A DNA stretch of 64,000 nucleotides, taken from assembly GCA_965214095.1 (NCBI GenBank), contig OZ243938.1:4192001-4256000 (forward strand), given 5' to 3'. Below, piece by piece: positions 26,938-40,060 of the stretch. A program made the translations under genes and the position numbers. Every line of letters starts with the position of its first letter. The stretch's first letter is position 1. The notes under the pieces are model-generated. The model did no database searches. It was not told where the DNA came from and saw only the letters and a list, made by a program, of their open reading frames with translations. Source of the stretch: Candidatus Poribacteria bacterium (GTDB lineage Bacteria > Poribacteria > WGA-4E > WGA-3G).

Positions 26938-27471
26938 TCAGTTCTGTTCTTCTGTAGATGTGTAAGTAACTTCGGTCATTATGTCACCTTCACGCAGTTT
27001 ATCAACAACATCAATTCCTTCAATGACGCGTCCGAATGTAGTATAACTGCCGTTTAAATGTGCATATCCGTTAGTATCTTCGTTTAAACAGATATAGAAT
27101 TGACTTCCCGCAGAATCTGGTGAAGGCTTGCGTGCCATAGCAATAACACCTTTCTCGTGTGGTGGCATTTTCTTTTTAAGTTCTGGATTCTGGAATTCTC
27201 CTGGGATCGTCCAACCAGGTCCACCAGTGCCAGTACCGTCGGGGTCCCCTCCTTGTATGACAAAACCCTTTACATAGCGGTGAAATGTCAAACCGTCATA
27301 GAATCCTGCTTCAACTAATTTTACAAAATTCTTAACAGTGGCAGGTGCACAGTCGGGGTAAAGTTCAATTATTATGTTTCCTTTATCTGTTTTAAACGTT
27401 ACAATTGATAATTGATTATCGGCACTTGAATAAGTGGTGGATAGAAGATTACTCAATAGACTTATGTGCAT
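26938..27471 (-). CDS. Cyclophilin-type peptidyl-prolyl isomerase
   Basis: FYDGLTFHR, IQGGDPDGTGTGGPG, AGSQFYI and YTTFGRV motifs. Confidence 0.95.
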   Translation of the reverse strand: MHISLLSNLLSTTYSSADNQLSIVTFKTDKGNIIIELYPDCAPATVKNFVKLVEAGFYDGLTFHRYVKGFVIQGGDPDGTGTGGPGWTIPGEFQNPELKKKMPPHEKGVIAMARKPSPDSAGSQFYICLNEDTNGYAHLNGSYTTFGRVIEGIDVVDKLREGDIMTEVTYTSTEEQN

Positions 27472-27520
27472 TTTTCCTCGTAGAAGTTATTTGTTTTTTT
27501 CTTATGATTAAACTATTCAG

Positions 27521-27552
27521 ATATTGAGATAGGTAGACTACTATCTCAATAT
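27521..27552. promoter_or_regulatory. Perfect 12-bp-arm inverted repeat in a divergent intergenic region (possible operator or RNA hairpin)
   Basis: ATATTGAGATAG-GTAGACTA-CTATCTCAATAT. Confidence 0.45.
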
Positions 27553-27750
27553 TCAATTACTCATGATACATGTTTTTGGGCATAAAGTCAAGTGAAATAT
27601 CAGTTGGTCACTTAAGATTATCTTGACATCATACTCTTTATTATGTTACCTTAATTCAATGATTATTGACTTGATAGCAGTACAAAATTTTCTAACAATA
27701 TATTTCAAATGGTCAGGAATAATTTCCAGCAGTAAAGTTACTATATCCCG

Positions 27751-27950
27751 GTCAATAACCCCGTGCTAAAGCATCGGGGCTTGTGCGAAGCGCATGCCAA
27801 ACGTTCACTCCACAAGTTAAACTATTTTCTACAGTCATATATCGGGTGTTCTGAACGTGGCAGTCCAATGTATGTTTCGGATGCTCCCCAAGTCCGATTC
27901 CTCTACGAATACCCGATCTGGATGGGGCAATATATACTCTTCGGAGGTTT
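27751..27950 (+). ncRNA. Putative omega-RNA scaffold
   Basis: Structured leader directly 5' of the PLMP protein: end hairpin, long-range stem ATCGGGTGTTC/GAATACCCGAT, CGGATGCTCCCCAAGTCCG hairpin whose loop can pair with the downstream TGGGG, and a terminal CTC-TTCG-GAG hairpin. The 3' end is approximate. Confidence 0.75.
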
Positions 27951-27954
27951 ACAC

Positions 27955-28962
27955 ATCTTAGTTCCAGTAATAGACAAAAATCAACACCCTCTCATGCCTA
28001 CAAAACCCTCACGGGCGAGGCGTTGGATACAAACAGGGAAAGCGACACCCTTTTGGAATAATGGTATATTTTGCGTCCGACTAAATGTTGATCCATCAGA
28101 CACTGAACTCCAAGACATAGTGGTTGGTGTGGATCCTGGTAGTAAGAAAGAAGGCTTTAGTGTGAAATCAGAGAAACATACTTATCTGAATGTGCAAGCG
28201 GACGCACATAACAAGGTTGGTAAAAAGGTTGAAAAAAGACGTGAACTTCGTAGATGTAGGCGTTCACGGAAGTGTCCTAATCGGAAAAATAGGACAAACA
28301 AACTTGCTAACAGAGAACGTCTACCTGCTGGCACGCGTGCGAGATGGGATTGGAAGTTAAGGGTCCTTAATTGGTTATCTAAACTCTATCCTATTAGTCA
28401 TGTATGTGTAGAAGACATCAAAGCACGGACTATCAAATGCGCTAAAAAGTGGAATCAATCTTTTAGTCCATTGGAAGTTGGTAAGCAGTGGTTCTATACT
28501 GAAATCAAGAAGCGATGGCACCTGCTAACACTCCAAGGATACGAAACAAAGGAAATCCGTGATAGGCTTGGGTTGAAAAAGTCTAAACAGAAGTTAGCAG
28601 AAACCTTTGACACACATTGTGTGGATAGTTGGTGTCTTGCTTATCATACTGTCGGCGGTGATAGCATACCAGATACGACAGATATATTCTGTATATCACC
28701 CATACCGATAGCCAGACGCAATCTACACAGAGAACAACCGAAAAAAGGGGGTATCCGTTCACGATATGGTGGCACTTTGCTAAAAGAAGGATTGGTCAAG
28801 AACACACTTGTCAAGCATATCAAATATGGATTGACAAGATTAGCAGGTGTCAACGCAAAAGGATTGTTTTCAATCTATAGCATTGATGGGGAACGATTGA
28901 CAACGGGTGCAAAACAAAGAGATTTCAAGGTGTTAACTAAACTAAACTTTCAATATAGATAG
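27955..28962 (+). CDS. isrB: IsrB RNA-guided nickase (IscB relative lacking HNH)
   Basis: PLMP motif (VPVIDKNQHPLMPTKPSRARRW), RuvC-I GVDPGSK, Arg-rich bridge helix RRELRRCRRSRK, RuvC-II CVEDIKA and RuvC-III THCVDSW, with no HNH insertion; ~335 aa. The start is uncertain (ATC after GGAGG). Confidence 0.88.
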   Translation: MLVPVIDKNQHPLMPTKPSRARRWIQTGKATPFWNNGIFCVRLNVDPSDTELQDIVVGVDPGSKKEGFSVKSEKHTYLNVQADAHNKVGKKVEKRRELRRCRRSRKCPNRKNRTNKLANRERLPAGTRARWDWKLRVLNWLSKLYPISHVCVEDIKARTIKCAKKWNQSFSPLEVGKQWFYTEIKKRWHLLTLQGYETKEIRDRLGLKKSKQKLAETFDTHCVDSWCLAYHTVGGDSIPDTTDIFCISPIPIARRNLHREQPKKGGIRSRYGGTLLKEGLVKNTLVKHIKYGLTRLAGVNAKGLFSIYSIDGERLTTGAKQRDFKVLTKLNFQYR

Positions 28963-29051
28963 GAACGGGCATTTCTCCCCGTGCTAAAGCAGCGGGGTCT
29001 CCTGCCCGATGATTAGATGAACTACTTACTTTTATCAGAAGGAGTTGAAAA

Positions 29052-30395
29052 ATGAAACAGTTCTGTGTTTTGAAAGAACAGACATTTAGGGGAATAAAAC
29101 ACCCTACATTTTGTGCTTATTTTGGGTTTGCTGTGCTCATAAGCACGCTATTTCTTGCTGCATGCGGTGGAAAACTGGGAACGATTGAATCCCAGGATGT
29201 AGAAACTCAACTCCACCAAGCAGAACAGGAAGTAAGATCAGCGCGTGATGCAAATGCTCATTCTCTTGCCTTTGAAGAATTTGAAAAGGCAGAAACCTAT
29301 CTTGAGCAAGCGAAGGATGCATATAAAGAAAAGAATGGGGTAGATGCCCTCAAATATGCTAATCAAGCAATCGCGCATGCAAAGATAGCAAAACGAAAAG
29401 CAAATCAGAATACGACAAATGCTGAATATAACGCAAAAATACTTGAAAAAGACGCTCTGATCACTAAACTCAAAAAAGACCTAAGTTCCAATGAAAGAAA
29501 ACACAATGAATTAGAAACAGAGGTCCAACAACTTCGTGATACAGAGAAAGCACTCCAGAATAACATTAACACATTAGAAAACCGAAATCAGGAATTGGTG
29601 AATGATCAAAGAGAACTCCAACGAAAAGTATCGGAAGTTAATGAGTCTTTAGAATCAATTCGGGCAAGAGCCACCCGTTATGAGAACGAAGTCAAGACCT
29701 ATGGCAACCAGGTGAATGAACTCAAACGGAAGATTGATGTCACTGACACTATGATGAAATCTGCGAATAAGCAAAAACGTGCAGCAATTGCAGAAGCAGA
29801 AGCAGTCAGAAAACAGATACGTGAACAAGCAAAGATCTTCACTGATAAACTTGTAGCAGCAAATAAGAAGAATATTGCTACTGAGCATGCAGAATATTTA
29901 CGTAAAGCGGCTGCGGAAGCACGGGCTTTTGAAAAAGAACTTCACAGTAACGAACCTAAACGTACTGGTAGGACAACACTTTCTACACAACAGATCAATA
30001 CGGGGAAAACTGCACTCAATCAATGGGAGAGTGCTTGGAATAGCAAGAATCTTGACGCACATTTTGCTCATTACACTCCTGATATGGCAGCAAACAAGAT
30101 TGTTACGATAGAAAGTAAAGAGAATCAAAATAAACTTGATCGTGGACAACTGGAAACTGATCTCCGTAAGATGAATACTCAGAAATGGGAAAAATTTGAT
30201 AGTACCACTGAGGTAGAACAGGAAAGTGTCATCGGCACTTTTAAATATAGACGATTAGTTTCAGCTGCTGAAACCGAGGATGATACAGCATTGTATGATA
30301 TCTGGTTCCGTGAAATATGGATACATCAGGTGCAGGGAAAATGGAAAGCATATCGTGAGATATGGCAAATCTATAAGAATGTACCTAAATTCTAA
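29052..30395 (+). CDS. Lipoprotein: DUF4398-like helical domain, long coiled coil and C-terminal NTF2-like domain
   Basis: Lipobox LAAC; AEQEVRSARDANAHSLA...AETYLEQAK; heptad region; WESAWNSKNLDAHFAHY...WKAYREIW. Confidence 0.6.
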   Translation: MKQFCVLKEQTFRGIKHPTFCAYFGFAVLISTLFLAACGGKLGTIESQDVETQLHQAEQEVRSARDANAHSLAFEEFEKAETYLEQAKDAYKEKNGVDALKYANQAIAHAKIAKRKANQNTTNAEYNAKILEKDALITKLKKDLSSNERKHNELETEVQQLRDTEKALQNNINTLENRNQELVNDQRELQRKVSEVNESLESIRARATRYENEVKTYGNQVNELKRKIDVTDTMMKSANKQKRAAIAEAEAVRKQIREQAKIFTDKLVAANKKNIATEHAEYLRKAAAEARAFEKELHSNEPKRTGRTTLSTQQINTGKTALNQWESAWNSKNLDAHFAHYTPDMAANKIVTIESKENQNKLDRGQLETDLRKMNTQKWEKFDSTTEVEQESVIGTFKYRRLVSAAETEDDTALYDIWFREIWIHQVQGKWKAYREIWQIYKNVPKF

Positions 30396-37669: not shown

Positions 37670-37807
37670 GATTTTTTCCTCCAGTAAATTTAATCACAAA
37701 AAAGACTATATCATTTGTGTTTTCGCACTAAAAACACACCAATAATTTAAAATAGTTGCAAAAAAATCTATAATTCACCTCTCATAGTCCGTGAAGCCCA
37801 AGTCTTA

Positions 37808-37920
37808 TGAAGATTAAGAAATAAATTAGGTAATTTCCTTGAGAAGTCCGGAGCGGTTAGGAAACCGCTCCTACCGGGTTTGAGAAAATGAGAATTACCC
37901 GTTTAATAAATTAATCTTCA
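37808..37920. mobile_element. 113-bp MITE carrying a REP, nested in the IS605 left-end hairpin
   Basis: TIR TGAAGATTAA/TTAATCTTCA, TTA on both flanks, internal GGAGCGGTTAGGAAACCGCTCCTACCGG. Confidence 0.75.
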
Positions 37921-37967
37921 TTAGACTTGGGATATGAGAACTTTTCTTTGCTTTAGCCCAAATATAT

Positions 37968-37996
37968 TTGACTATTAACTAAATATATGTTATTAT
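37968..37996 (+). promoter_or_regulatory. Probable tnpA promoter
   Basis: TTGACT-N17-TATTAT with an extended TG. Confidence 0.6.
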
Positions 37997-38029
37997 ATAT
38001 AATATATATCTAATAAATGAATATATAGA

Positions 38030-38446
38030 ATGTTAGAACTTAAAGAAAAACCCTCTACCTACAAATCAACTCATTCTTTAGTCTATAGTTGTGATTACCA
38101 TGTGATTTGGTGCACAAAATATCGTCGTCCTGTGCTTGTCTCTCCTATTGCTGAACGGCTCAAAACACTGATCTATGAACAGCAAGAGGTTTATGGGTAT
38201 GAAGTGCACGCCTGTGAAGTGATGGATGACCATGTTCATATTCTGATGAGTAGTAGTCCCCAACTCGCTCCTGCATCTGTCGTTGGCAGGATCAAAGGTT
38301 GGACTTCTCGTGTGTTGCGTGATGAGTATCCCTCTCTGAAATCTCGTATTCCCTCGCTTTGGACGCGTTCTAAATTTATCGCCTCCACAGGGGGTATCGC
38401 TTTAGAAGTGCTTCGCAAGTATGTAGAGAACCAGCGAGGTAAATAA
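38030..38446 (+). CDS. tnpA: IS200/IS605 Y1 HUH transposase
   Basis: YHVIWCTKYRR, HUH motif DHVHIL and catalytic Tyr in KYVENQ. Confidence 0.96.
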   Translation: MLELKEKPSTYKSTHSLVYSCDYHVIWCTKYRRPVLVSPIAERLKTLIYEQQEVYGYEVHACEVMDDHVHILMSSSPQLAPASVVGRIKGWTSRVLRDEYPSLKSRIPSLWTRSKFIASTGGIALEVLRKYVENQRGK

Positions 38447-39708
38447 TGGTTTTAACGTTCAAATACCGCTTGTATCCGACACCTACGCAAGAAACCGAGT
38501 TATATCAATATCTTTCGCATTTGTGTGAGTTACACAACTCAGCGCGACTGAATCGTATGCGTGCGTATGAAGAAGAGAAACGTTCTGTAAGTTATGCTGA
38601 ACAGTGTCGGCTTCTGACACAAGCACGTGCAAAGTATGAAGACTTCGACATTGTGCCGCAAGAGTTTCAGAAACACGCACTTCAACGTGTGAACAAAGCT
38701 TTTGCGAACTTTTTCCGTCGTGTCAAACAAGGCGGTGAAAAACCGGGATTCCCACGCTATCGCAAACGTATCCGTTCTCTCACCTGGAGTCTACGTAAGA
38801 ACAAAGCAGGCATTCGTCAAAATCCTATTCGTCCAACGAAGCACCGTTTAGATAGACTGATTGTGCCCAAACTCGGTGAAATCAAGATGCGGATGTCCCG
38901 TCCCATCCAAGGTGACCCGAAAGAGGTTACTATCGTGAAAAAAGCCTCCGGGTGGTATGCACATATCTCCTGCGACATCGGTGATACGCCGAAAGTGGAA
39001 CCGACCCGTGCTGTTGCCGTTGATGTCGGCACGAACCACTATTTGACGACATCTGCGGGTGAAAAAGTTGGAAACCCGCGTTGGTATCGCAAAGCGGAGG
39101 GGTTACTCCGCAAGCACGCTAAAGACCTTTCTCGTAAAAAGTTAGGTTCTCACCGTAGAAAGAAACAACACCACAAACTCGCTTTACATCAGGAGCGCAC
39201 TGTAAACAGACGCAGAGACTTTATCGGTAAACTCGTTTACAAACTCTACCATCATAAGAAAAATAATGTCTTGGTAACCGAAAATCTAAATACTGCCAAT
39301 ATGGTTCAGAACAAATACCTCAGCAAGAGTATCAGCGATGCGTCTTGGGCACACTTCTTTGAGTGGTGTGGGAACATAGCCGAAAGAGACGGTTTCCATT
39401 TCCACCAAGTTGATCCGAAGAACACCTCGCAAACTTGCTCTTGCTGCGGGCAGAAAGCACCGAAAAAGTTATCGCTATCGGTGCGGACATTCAACTGCGG
39501 ATATTGTGGACACTCGCTTGACCGAGACCACAACGCTGCAGTAAACATACTTTTTCGGGCAGCTGCTGCCCGTCGTGGAGAGCGGTGGGTTACCACCCTC
39601 TATGAAACGAGAAACAAGAACGAAGCAACAAAGGCTATGGAGAAGAAAATCATTCAGTTATCGCTGTTTGAACCTCTTAACAATCCCAATGCCTTTAGGC
39701 TTGGGTAG
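38446..39708 (+). CDS. tnpB: TnpB RNA-guided endonuclease
   Basis: TFKYRLYPT HTH, RuvC-I AVDVG, RuvC-II VTENL, zinc finger CSCCG/CGYCG and RuvC-III DRDHNAAVNI; TAATG coupling to tnpA. Confidence 0.96.
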   Translation: MVLTFKYRLYPTPTQETELYQYLSHLCELHNSARLNRMRAYEEEKRSVSYAEQCRLLTQARAKYEDFDIVPQEFQKHALQRVNKAFANFFRRVKQGGEKPGFPRYRKRIRSLTWSLRKNKAGIRQNPIRPTKHRLDRLIVPKLGEIKMRMSRPIQGDPKEVTIVKKASGWYAHISCDIGDTPKVEPTRAVAVDVGTNHYLTTSAGEKVGNPRWYRKAEGLLRKHAKDLSRKKLGSHRRKKQHHKLALHQERTVNRRRDFIGKLVYKLYHHKKNNVLVTENLNTANMVQNKYLSKSISDASWAHFFEWCGNIAERDGFHFHQVDPKNTSQTCSCCGQKAPKKLSLSVRTFNCGYCGHSLDRDHNAAVNILFRAAAARRGERWVTTLYETRNKNEATKAMEKKIIQLSLFEPLNNPNAFRLG

Positions 39709-40060
39709 TTGAATCTCCTCTTGATATTCTATCTACATGTTCTTGAACTATATGTTTAGGACAGGATTTAATAAATAGCCAGGCCCCCGGTACAAGTATC
39801 ACGAATGCTCCAATGCAAATATCATCAAATCGACCAATTATAGGGATGAAATCGAAATCAAACGGAAAGACTAAATAGGCTATTGCAAAGATAACAGCAA
39901 GCACCTCAAAGACGACGAGTATGGCTTTACGATAGACAGGCACACGTTCATCTTTGAAAAGACGCATCGTCAACCGGATGAAGTTTGGTAGATTGAGTAA
40001 GATACGAAGAAAGCGGAAGATTCCTCGTCCTTTACCACCAAAGAAAAATGGATTTATCAT
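39695..40060 (-). CDS. DUF1232/YkvA-family membrane protein (3' end extended into the IS)
   Basis: RLFKDERVP, YLVFPFDFDFIPIIGRFDD motifs. Confidence 0.8.
   Translation of the reverse strand: MINPFFFGGKGRGIFRFLRILLNLPNFIRLTMRLFKDERVPVYRKAILVVFEVLAVIFAIAYLVFPFDFDFIPIIGRFDDICIGAFVILVPGAWLFIKSCPKHIVQEHVDRISRGDSTTQA

Follow-up and report, generated by a model that had tools for sequence, protein, structure and literature searches.

A 64,000-nt stretch of the Candidatus Poribacteria contig OZ243938.1 (assembly GCA_965214095.1), hereafter the window, raises the question of whether its positions 27751-29016 hold a complete mobile element of the OMEGA type, built around a gene for the Cas9 homologue IsrB. 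All positions below are window coordinates; the source genome, G000, comprises 5.25 Mb in 4 contigs. OMEGA systems are said to have been described originally by Altae-Tran et al. in 2021. A preliminary description, made from the letters of the window, had proposed a complete IsrB OMEGA element here, and we found every feature that it described in its place. With high confidence, the interval is a complete non-autonomous element of the IS200/IS605 superfamily, of the ISC1/IsrB (OMEGA) type and 1266 nt long. The element is an intact and recently mobile copy of a transposon type that has already been described.

Element boundaries, copies and empty sites

The motifs that mark the boundaries are the following:

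27751-27754, flanking motif: GTCA, the first bases of the element
29017-29020, plus strand: ATGA, host target tetranucleotide and predicted target-adjacent motif (TAM), outside the element (empty alleles at 4/5 insertion sites)
27731-27750, plus strand: predicted 20-nt guide, AGTAAAGTTACTATATCCCG, in the host flank directly 5' of the element

Five full copies of the IsrB element are present in the genome, each of 1266-1270 nt, with 93-100% identity and unrelated flanks. Four are 99.1-100% identical over 1270 nt; L005, the remaining one, has 93% identity over 1260 nt. Because the same 1266-1270 nt recur five times in unrelated surroundings, the features of the element are beyond chance. All five copies start with GTCA after a left flank that is different in each. 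On the right, three copies end in ...GATTAG^ATGA (a caret marks the junction), L005 ends in ...CTTTG^ATGA and L004 reads ...GATTAG-AGGAG-ATGA; direct abutment on a 3' ATGA is seen in 4/5 copies. Across four DNA contig runs over the region, contigs stop at the element ends and the word depth inside is 3.4-4x that of the flanks, which is consistent with about four near-identical copies. The empty allele joining 27750 to 29017 was not seen in these four runs, which says nothing on its absence.

We searched the window locus against 40 relatives for empty alleles. In G021, a genome of the same genus with flanks that are ~89% identical, both flanks abut, 27750 being joined to 29017 without duplication. 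The empty site reads ...cagtaaagctgctatatcccG^atgaactacttactttt (...gctatatcccG^atgaactactt), an exact match to the empty site that the preliminary description had predicted, ...CTATATCCCG^ATGAACTAC. Searching related genomes, a check that it had proposed, also yielded empty alleles for three further copies. At the L003 site, 5/5 relatives searched read ...(t/c)taa^ATGAgaa, that is, empty, and in three of them (G021, G001 and G005) the BLAST blocks of the left and right 300 nt meet exactly. The L005 site has an exact empty allele in G021 (...ggaaacaga^ATGAataaca), with the same junction by eye in G001 and G005. For L002, the orthologous place in G024 reads ...aagataaata-ATGA-gaatagaaca. Since empty alleles with ATGA exist for 4/5 copies, ATGA is host sequence, the element proper spans 27751-29016, and it is inserted at N^ATGA. 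Site-specific N^ATGA insertion in the absence of a target-site duplication is shown for 4/5 copies, the fifth, L004, being ambiguous.

No IsrB match at E<=1e-20 was found in G021. The insertions in G000 are therefore younger than the split from G021, the nearest sampled relative, and the element has spread to five sites in G000 since that split.

The L004 copy (contig C1 of G000, 1931291-1932561, minus strand) has AGGAG, five extra bases, between its GATTAG end and ATGA. The same five bases stand in the host sequence immediately to the left of the element, and the arrangement resembles a 5-bp target duplication, which would be unexpected from Y1 transposition. Alternatively, the copy inserted beside AGGA in a native AGGAG-AGGAG repeat. 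The length of the orthologous intergenic sites in G005 and G001 is nearer to the duplication reading, but their divergence is too great for a choice between the two, and at this site G021 has undergone rearrangement.

The IsrB protein, its start codon and the omega RNA

The element contains one gene:

27955-28962, plus strand: isrB, homologous part of 334 aa from 27958, stop codon TAG at 28960-28962

The gene lies in an open reading frame (ORF) at 27763-28962 on the plus strand that is open for 399 aa from stop to stop. Its sole Pfam match at E<=1 is RRXRR (PF14239; E 2.9e-35, residues 67-222); no HNH family in Pfam matched the ORF at E<=1. Among solved structures, phmmer ranks 8dmb_P, the fusion chain of DtIsrB, first (E 7.6e-37 over query residues 2-275), and IscB structures align by sequence over the PLMP and RuvC-I part only. 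With E cut-offs of 1e-3, 1e-10 and 1e-30, a library-wide search returned 1495, 623 and 184 cluster representatives, which makes this a large protein family. We aligned IsrB with 36 near-full-length representatives (33-54% identical; 37 sequences with IsrB itself). The profile of this alignment matches 8dmb with E 2.5e-90 over positions 3-347 of 357, TAM-interacting domain included. P14, D59, G61, E152, D223 and R254 are invariant in the 37 sequences and H220 is kept in 34/37; the PLMP domain shows HPLMP at residues 10-14, and R94-R104 of the arginine-rich bridge helix are nearly invariant. Judged from this alignment, IsrB retains all RuvC catalytic residues (D59, E152, H220 and D223).

The AlphaFold2 model of IsrB (mean predicted local distance difference test score 87.8, predicted template-modelling (TM) score 0.83) has beta strands at 283-333. 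Its top Foldseek match in the PDB is again 8dmb_P (E 3.1e-27, TM 0.81/0.83, 29% identity, whole length). IscB structures come next (TMt 0.40-0.68), with RuvC resolvases distantly behind. The gap between E152 and H220 is only ~67 residues, which leaves no room for an HNH domain. Alignment and model identify the protein as IsrB, with PLMP, RuvC and TAM-interacting domains, no HNH domain and a predicted DtIsrB-like fold. The ~335-aa PLMP and split-RuvC protein lacking HNH that had been read from the letters is thus borne out at 334 aa, by the RRXRR profile match as well as by the fold match to 8dmb, the two kinds of check suggested for it.

Residue equivalence with DtIsrB was set by an offset for the fusion chain that we derived from the prolines of PLMP. 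The counterpart of DtIsrB R323, the reader of TAM G3, is R313, conserved in 34/37 sequences. Thr316 (28903-28905) aligns with DtIsrB Q326, the reader of TAM A4. Position 316 is most often Q in the 37-sequence alignment (23 sequences; R 9, K 2, T 1) and most often T among 80 related Poribacteria loci (L071-L150): 42 loci, against 10 with Q, 1 with R and 27 unparsed. In DtIsrB, the change Q326R relaxes the fourth TAM position, and several orthologues require just NTG (PMC9581776).

The codon at the start position is ATC (27955-27957) in 5/5 copies of G000. The 31-sequence RNA alignment described below has ATG in 28 sequences, ATG one codon earlier in 1 (L056) and ATC in 2, both from G000; 80 further related loci have ATG in 72 and ATC in 1. 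ATC can support initiation at a low level in bacteria. A CUC-UUCG-GAG hairpin holds a GGAGG that precedes the ATC by 7 nt, and an in-frame ATG is found at 27922, within the structured RNA. The ORF is intact in all five copies. Between the window copy and the 93% copy L005, isrB shows 67 nt and 21 aa differences, with 0.035 nonsynonymous substitutions per nonsynonymous site (dN), 0.208 synonymous substitutions per synonymous site (dS) and dN/dS 0.17. On these rates, isrB is under purifying selection between both ATC-bearing subfamilies. Because the ORF is under such selection, IsrB is probably still translated, from the ATC or from 27922.

When 27000-29500 was scanned permissively against Rfam, the one match was to HEARO (RF02033), at 27751-27984 on the plus strand (27.6 bits, E 0.0036; whole model, 1-211). 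It begins exactly at 27751, and the first helix of the scaffold likewise begins at the first element base. The covariance-model search that had been proposed for this region thus gave a full-length match from 27751, but its score falls below the gathering threshold, and we therefore file the RNA as HEARO-like and not as an Rfam member. The parts of the predicted RNA are listed here, with stems as S and stem-loops as SL; element position plus 27750 gives window position.

27751-27957, plus strand: omega-RNA scaffold of ~205 nt, first element base to start-codon position (HEARO match, covariation)
27751-27829, plus strand: guide-adaptor region, S1 enclosing SL1 and SL2 (helices 1-5)
27751-27757 with 27823-27829, plus strand: S1 (element 1-7 with 73-79)
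27759-27779, plus strand: SL1 (element 9-29)
27780-27816, plus strand: SL2, with inner hairpin (element 30-66), loop GCCA at 27796-27799
element 82-84 with 168-170: S2
element 91-97 with 161-167: S3
27852-27867, plus strand: hairpin A (element 102-117), loop TGGC at 27858-27861 (helix 6)
element 120-122 with 154-156: S4
27877-27897, plus strand: hairpin B (element 127-147), loop CCCC at 27886-27889 (helices 11 and 12)
element 46-49 with 108-111: adaptor pseudoknot, GCCA of the SL2 loop with TGGC of the hairpin A loop
element 136-139 with 174-177: nexus pseudoknot, CCCC with GGGG (27924-27927)
27937-27946, plus strand: terminal hairpin CUC-UUCG-GAG (element 187-196), SL7 equivalent, holding the Shine-Dalgarno (SD)-like GGAGG at 27943-27947

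Conservation of this structure was scored on an alignment, A1, of 31 non-identical sequences from relatives whose proteins are 61-94% identical; it begins at the element start and takes in the first 33 nt of the ORF. RNAalifold alone found 35 pairs on A1, 22 of them with a compensatory change. The fuller structure, with 12 helices and two pseudoknots, was partly derived from the window sequence, which gives it an advantage over the slid controls but has no bearing on the compensatory counts. On A1, 91.8% of its 1674 cells pair and 24/55 pairs show compensatory changes; shuffles paired 81.4 +/- 0.5%, with 0/500 reaching the observed value, and slid controls 30-44%. Compensatory changes affect 13/25 pairs of the guide-adaptor helices 1-5. 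Hairpin A and the adaptor pseudoknot (helix 6) pair in 98.4% of cells, one pair of the pseudoknot being GC in 18 sequences and AU in 13. Hairpin B and the nexus pseudoknot (helices 11 and 12) pair in 100% and 99.2%; being nearly invariant, the nexus pseudoknot counts as conserved, not as supported by covariation. Stem and loop of the terminal hairpin change together in A1 (CCC-GAAA-GGG, CUC-GAAA-GAG; GNRA/UUCG-type), its pairs being left uncounted as the register shifts. The ~200 nt of structured RNA that the preliminary description saw before the ORF accordingly has a counterpart of ~205 nt, a 12-helix structure supported by compensatory changes in 24/55 pairs. The comparison identifies the first ~205 nt of the element as a conserved RNA structure with two predicted pseudoknots.

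Helix names were assigned by order and partners against PMC9581776 and not by RNA alignment. Named in this way and set against the scaffold as described there, the core S1-S4 and SL1/2/4/5/7 with both pseudoknots is present between the transposon end and the ORF start. An nhmmer search of G000 with a scaffold profile found no standalone omega RNAs of the IsrB family: the five full copies were the only full matches. Other hits covered <=65 profile positions at E>=0.012 and correspond to the shared transposon end or to short internal stretches.

End hairpins, resident element families and a candidate transposase

Read on the minus strand, the two ends of the element are organised as follows:

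27759-27779: IsrB-proximal hairpin, right end (RE) on the minus strand and SL1 of the RNA (repeat search; all 5 copies end here)
27780-27783: CAAG on the minus strand, 5' of the proximal foot, with TTAT-TGAC 3' of the foot
28966-29016: distal end, left end (LE) on the minus strand; the same architecture, with covarying stems, occurs in other G000 families
28966-28971 with 29003-29008: distal outer stem, CGGGCA with TGCCCG
28977-28997: distal inner hairpin
28998-29001: distal reverse-complement guide TCTC (minus strand: GAGA); 15 nt follow, up to the final base of the element, 29016

The two near-identical bracketing hairpins noted earlier are present: CCCCGTGCTAAAGCATCGGGG (27759-27779) and CCCCGTGCTAAAGCAGCGGGG (28977-28997) are identical at 20/21 positions and form the top direct repeat of 27300-29500. 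Both ends carry subterminal imperfect hairpins and lack terminal inverted repeats, and the stems covary between element families. On the minus strand, the distal end reads TCAT^CTAATCATCGGGCAG-GAGA-(CCCCGCTGC TTTA GCACGGGG) and the proximal end CAAG-(CCCCGATGC TTTA GCACGGGG)-TTAT-TGAC^.

The preliminary description had applied the pairing rule of IS608 to these ends, with CAAG specifying TGAC and GAGA specifying TCAT. The register of this pairing, G1:C2, G2:C1 and G4:C4 with the third base unpaired, follows from the pairs TTAC/AAAG and TCAA/GAAT. Applied here, GAGA predicts TC-T, and TCAT is observed; CAAG predicts TGAC, and TGAC is observed. TCAT stands 19 nt from the LE foot; at RE, 8 nt separate the end of the site from the foot. 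IS608 of Helicobacter pylori, as described by He et al. 2011 (PMC3201880), is cleaved at LE 19 nt 5' of the hairpin foot, outside the element, and at RE 10 nt 3' of the foot, inside it, and the four bases 5' of each foot read both sites (G_L being AAAG). Our element is like IS608 in its guide tetranucleotide 5' of each foot, a bulged hairpin base, the LE site 19 nt away outside the element and the RE site within it. It differs from IS608 in an RE site at 8 nt rather than 10 and in a G instead of an A as third guide base (GAGA).

The rule holds on the element and on two other element families of G000. Further ends in the genome (L011-L013) combine GAAG with TCAC directly abutted (GTGA on the plus strand), and the resident IS605 obeys it with GAAG and TCAC at 14 nt and with CAAT and TGAA. 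Among 80 related loci, 3' ends were parsed by regular expression in 28, and the other 52 were left out of the counts. The rule fits 22/28 (TCTC, TTTC or TATC with ATGA in 19, CTTC with GTGA in 3) and does not fit 6/28 (GCTC or CCTC with ATGA in 5, TCTC with GTGA in 1). The spacing is 14 nt in 15 of these loci, 15 nt in 9 and 16 nt in 4. By eye, and uncounted, the 52 unparsed relatives mostly also end at G^ATGA or G^GTGA. On these ends the reasoning from the IS608 rule is sound, but the rule is not absolute at the base adjoining the hairpin foot.

Which transposase could act on these ends? Y1 tnpA genes (PF01797) are found at five loci of G000: four IS605 copies and one partial tnpA. The IS605 copies are ~1.8 kb long, 98% alike, and carry tnpA and tnpB. 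One of them lies in the window:

38030-38446, plus strand: IS605 tnpA (Y1 transposase), ~9 kb downstream of the IsrB element (PF01797, E 2.7e-36)
38446-39708: IS605 tnpB, after tnpA; the whole IS605 copy spans ~37770-39714

The IS605 hairpins, CCCAAGTC-TTTA-GACTTGGG and CCCAA(T)GCC-TTTA-GGCTTGGG, have the same TTTA loop and CCC/GGG stems as the minus strand of the IsrB element, and the first of them is the reverse complement of the SL1 hairpin in several related IsrB elements. The setting mirrors the accounts in PMC4810608 and PMC10055086 of shared ends, antisense TnpB, PATE-like derivatives and one TnpA, and makes the IS605 TnpA of G000 the likely candidate for mobilising the IsrB element in trans.

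The IS605 copy in the window differs from the other three. Its LE hairpin, CCCAAGTC-TTTA-GACTTGGG in those copies, is split by a ~111-nt insertion (about 37807-37917). With its LE hairpin split, this copy may be immobile while still encoding TnpA. The insertion has its own hairpin, GGAGCGG...CCGCTCC, and a similar motif occurs in the flank of another IS605 copy. We had considered GGAGCGG...CCGCTCC, upstream of tnpA, as the LE hairpin and rejected it on comparing the four IS605 copies, as it belongs to the ~111-nt insertion.

G000 also holds TnpB-only elements (378-382 aa), antisense to the IsrB orientation, whose GTCATAG... ends are of the same hairpin type; C1:325900-327290 is one example and there are about ten further loci. 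Going by the literature on the two nucleases, the TnpB and IsrB elements of the genome would take their guides from the same flank. Non-coding elements of 407 nt with an ATGA target occur on contig C1 of G000 at 959174-959580, 3279134-3279540, 781028-781434 and 5082160-5082566, and ~330-nt elements with GTGA targets are also present. The 407-nt elements share only the first ~35 and last 60 nt with the IsrB element, and on the 5' side they are similar to TnpB-only ends; we rejected them as standalone omega RNAs because only the ends are shared. Two of these elements have lost the mismatch between TTCCT and TCTCC in the internal loop of their 3' outer hairpin: the pairing there is now perfect, the two having changed in opposite directions (GGGCATTCCTCCC...GGGAGGAATGCCC and GGGCAGGAGACCC...GGGTCTCCTGCCC), which resembles hairpin mismatch repair. 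In the first of the two, at C1:959174, the perfect pairing replaces the guide tetranucleotide, and the related IsrB locus L077 has the same paired form.

A lipoprotein-like host ORF, 29052-30395, starts 35 nt downstream of the window copy in the same orientation. The element separates it from its former upstream region, and its expression may now depend on read-through from the element.

Proposed mechanism, rival readings and related systems

A complete and still functional element would work as follows. A Y1 TnpA supplied in trans, for which the four-copy IS605 of G000 is the best candidate, would excise and insert the minus strand as single-stranded DNA, locating its cleavage sites through tetranucleotides (TCAT paired by GAGA, TGAC by CAAG). 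A transcript that enters the element from the host flank would give the omega RNA, whose 5' 20 nt (AGTAAAGTTACTATATCCCG at the window copy) would be the guide; as a speculation, the promoter of the host ORF 29052-30395 could supply this transcript at the window copy. IsrB with its omega RNA would recognise the rejoined empty site, a guide match followed by ATGA as TAM, and nick the non-target strand. The nick would favour recombinational re-copying of the element, as in the homing/retention model described by Meers et al. 2023 (PMC10055086). We also consider, tentatively and at well below even odds, that the IsrB clade of Poribacteria is a naturally minimal nickase system, with 334 aa, a core-only omega RNA of ~205 nt and, through Thr in place of Gln, a relaxed NTG-type TAM. 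In that joint proposal, held with the same reserve, the ATC start inside a protein-bound SD hairpin would deliberately throttle translation in G000 and give a low ratio of protein to RNA.

Several points weigh against the interpretation as a complete, working element. No tnpA lies within an element that has exactly these ends, and the IS605 partner is proposed from hairpin type alone. The HEARO match reaches 27.6 bits where the gathering score is 83. Transcript, 5' end and guide use are all predictions, and a promoter and terminator scan of 27400-29100 was at chance (6 promoter sites versus 5.0 +/- 2.2 expected). With Thr316 in place of Q326, recognition of the fourth TAM base may differ. The L004 copy does not stand directly next to ATGA. 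With ATC in all five copies, translation may be weak or start elsewhere.

The last point invites the reading that the element moves solely as a passive passenger of TnpA, with IsrB not or negligibly made and nuclease and guide vestigial. ATC in 5/5 copies of G000, against ATG in 72/80 and ATC in 1/80 related loci, speaks for it, and the spread in G000 of non-coding 407-nt elements with the same ends implies that mobility does not need coding capacity. However, a vestigial gene sits poorly with five intact ORFs out of five, the retention of all catalytic residues, dN/dS of 0.17 between the two ATC subfamilies, a well-placed GGAGG 7 nt before the ATC and an in-frame ATG at 27922. We regard this reading as unlikely. 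Domestication, in which the RNA-guided protein would serve the host, for example as a regulator, instead of the mobile element, would account for the place of the window copy, which is co-oriented with a host gene that starts at 29052 and lies 35 nt upstream of that gene. Domestication is highly improbable given five copies at unrelated sites, their absence from the nearest relative and the integrity of the catalytic residues and of both transposon ends. No copy was seen that is conserved at an orthologous site in many species and has decayed ends or a dead RuvC.

A further reading concerns the RNA, which might be a new compact class of IsrB omega RNA distinct from the described scaffolds. The preliminary description had raised the idea of a compact variant, and the scaffold is indeed short: ~205 nt to the start codon compared with 262 nt in DtIsrB (PMC9581776), with a HEARO score far under the gathering score. 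The shortness is, however, known variation. Every core helix and both pseudoknots are present, and the scaffold is shorter than the DtIsrB RNA because it lacks SL3, SL6 and SL8, which Hirano et al. 2022 (PMC9581776) describe as peripheral and absent or degenerate in other orthologues. Its pseudoknots, joining SL2 to the first inner hairpin and the second inner hairpin to the stretch ahead of SL7, are wired as in group A of that account, where SL2 pairs with SL4 and SL5 with the sequence preceding SL7, and the HEARO model, itself 211 positions, was matched end to end. A new class is improbable, slightly more so than the passive passenger. The reading of the interval as a complete IsrB element of a known kind stands over these alternatives as the one we prefer.

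This element type has close counterparts in print. ISC1-1_MA of Microcystis aeruginosa, described in 2016 by Kapitonov et al. (PMC4810608) with a 5'-GTCA end and an N^ATGA target, is likewise a non-autonomous IS200/IS605 element that encodes only an HNH-less Cas9 homologue, has subterminal hairpins and inserts without target duplication; its ends, too, are described as common to antisense TnpB-only elements, which also occur in G000. Compared by description, ours differs in its phylum, Candidatus Poribacteria, and in a 3' end ...TTAG where ISC1-1_MA has ...CG.

The protein and its RNA resemble DtIsrB (8DMB) as described in PMC9581776 in domain order, fold, the RuvC D/E/H/D residues and the arginine for TAM G3 (R313, Dt R323), and in a scaffold that starts from the transposon end, has adaptor and nexus pseudoknots and bears the SD in its terminal hairpin. 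That account gives DtIsrB a 20-nt guide directly 5' of a 262-nt scaffold with S1-S4 and SL1-SL8, an NTGA/TTGA TAM (NTG in orthologues) and, on the non-target strand, a nick lying 8-11 nt upstream of the TAM. Unlike DtIsrB, our protein shows 29% identity to it, Thr316 for Q326 and an ATC start, and the ~205-nt scaffold without SL3, SL6 and SL8 has group A wiring, as opposed to group B1. Compared by description, the RNA has the topology of those of BbIsrB, CsIsrB and K2IsrB (group A; A2 lacks SL3), which have the same pseudoknot partners and lack SL6 and SL8; the BbIsrB TAM is given as NTGG, and the natural target here is ATGA. The setting recalls the ISGst families of Geobacillus stearothermophilus described by Meers et al. 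2023 (PMC10055086), where IscB, TnpB and non-coding PATE-like elements share LE/RE types, presumably use one TnpA, and the nuclease targets the donor joint through a TAM that is the same as that of TnpA. IscB in those families has an HNH domain and makes double-strand breaks, unlike the HNH-less predicted nickase here; retention by such a nickase would need a nick-to-break step.

The family is widespread in this phylum. Of the 80 best related loci, 79 are from Candidatus or uncultured Poribacteria and 1 from an uncultured bacterium. Within an order sample of 151 genomes, G000 included, 73 have an IsrB match at E<=1e-20, in 7/17 genera; matches occur in 10/37 genomes of the window's own genus and 50/60 of a sister genus, and some genomes of the order have at least 14. 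Among the literature matches listed, Poribacteria were not found together with IsrB, IscB, HEARO, RRXRR or IS605, nor with TnpB, and together with IS200 only in an unrelated context. The ISC1 GTCA/N^ATGA type (PMC4810608), the biochemistry and structure of IsrB (PMC9581776) and the retention model (PMC10055086) are already in print in the accounts drawn on here; the abundance of IsrB in Poribacteria, the ATC start and the Thr at the A4-reading position apparently are not.

These findings leave the known working of such elements unchanged. What the locus offers is a cleanly delimited natural example of OMEGA, with ends, target, empty alleles, RNA and candidate transposase readable from genomes, in a phylum of uncultured sponge symbionts where the IsrB family is abundant. 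The small protein with its core-only guide scaffold is a reasonable tool candidate, and the families that occur together here and share a single hairpin type, namely IsrB, TnpB, non-coding and IS605, form a natural system for the study of trans-mobilisation.

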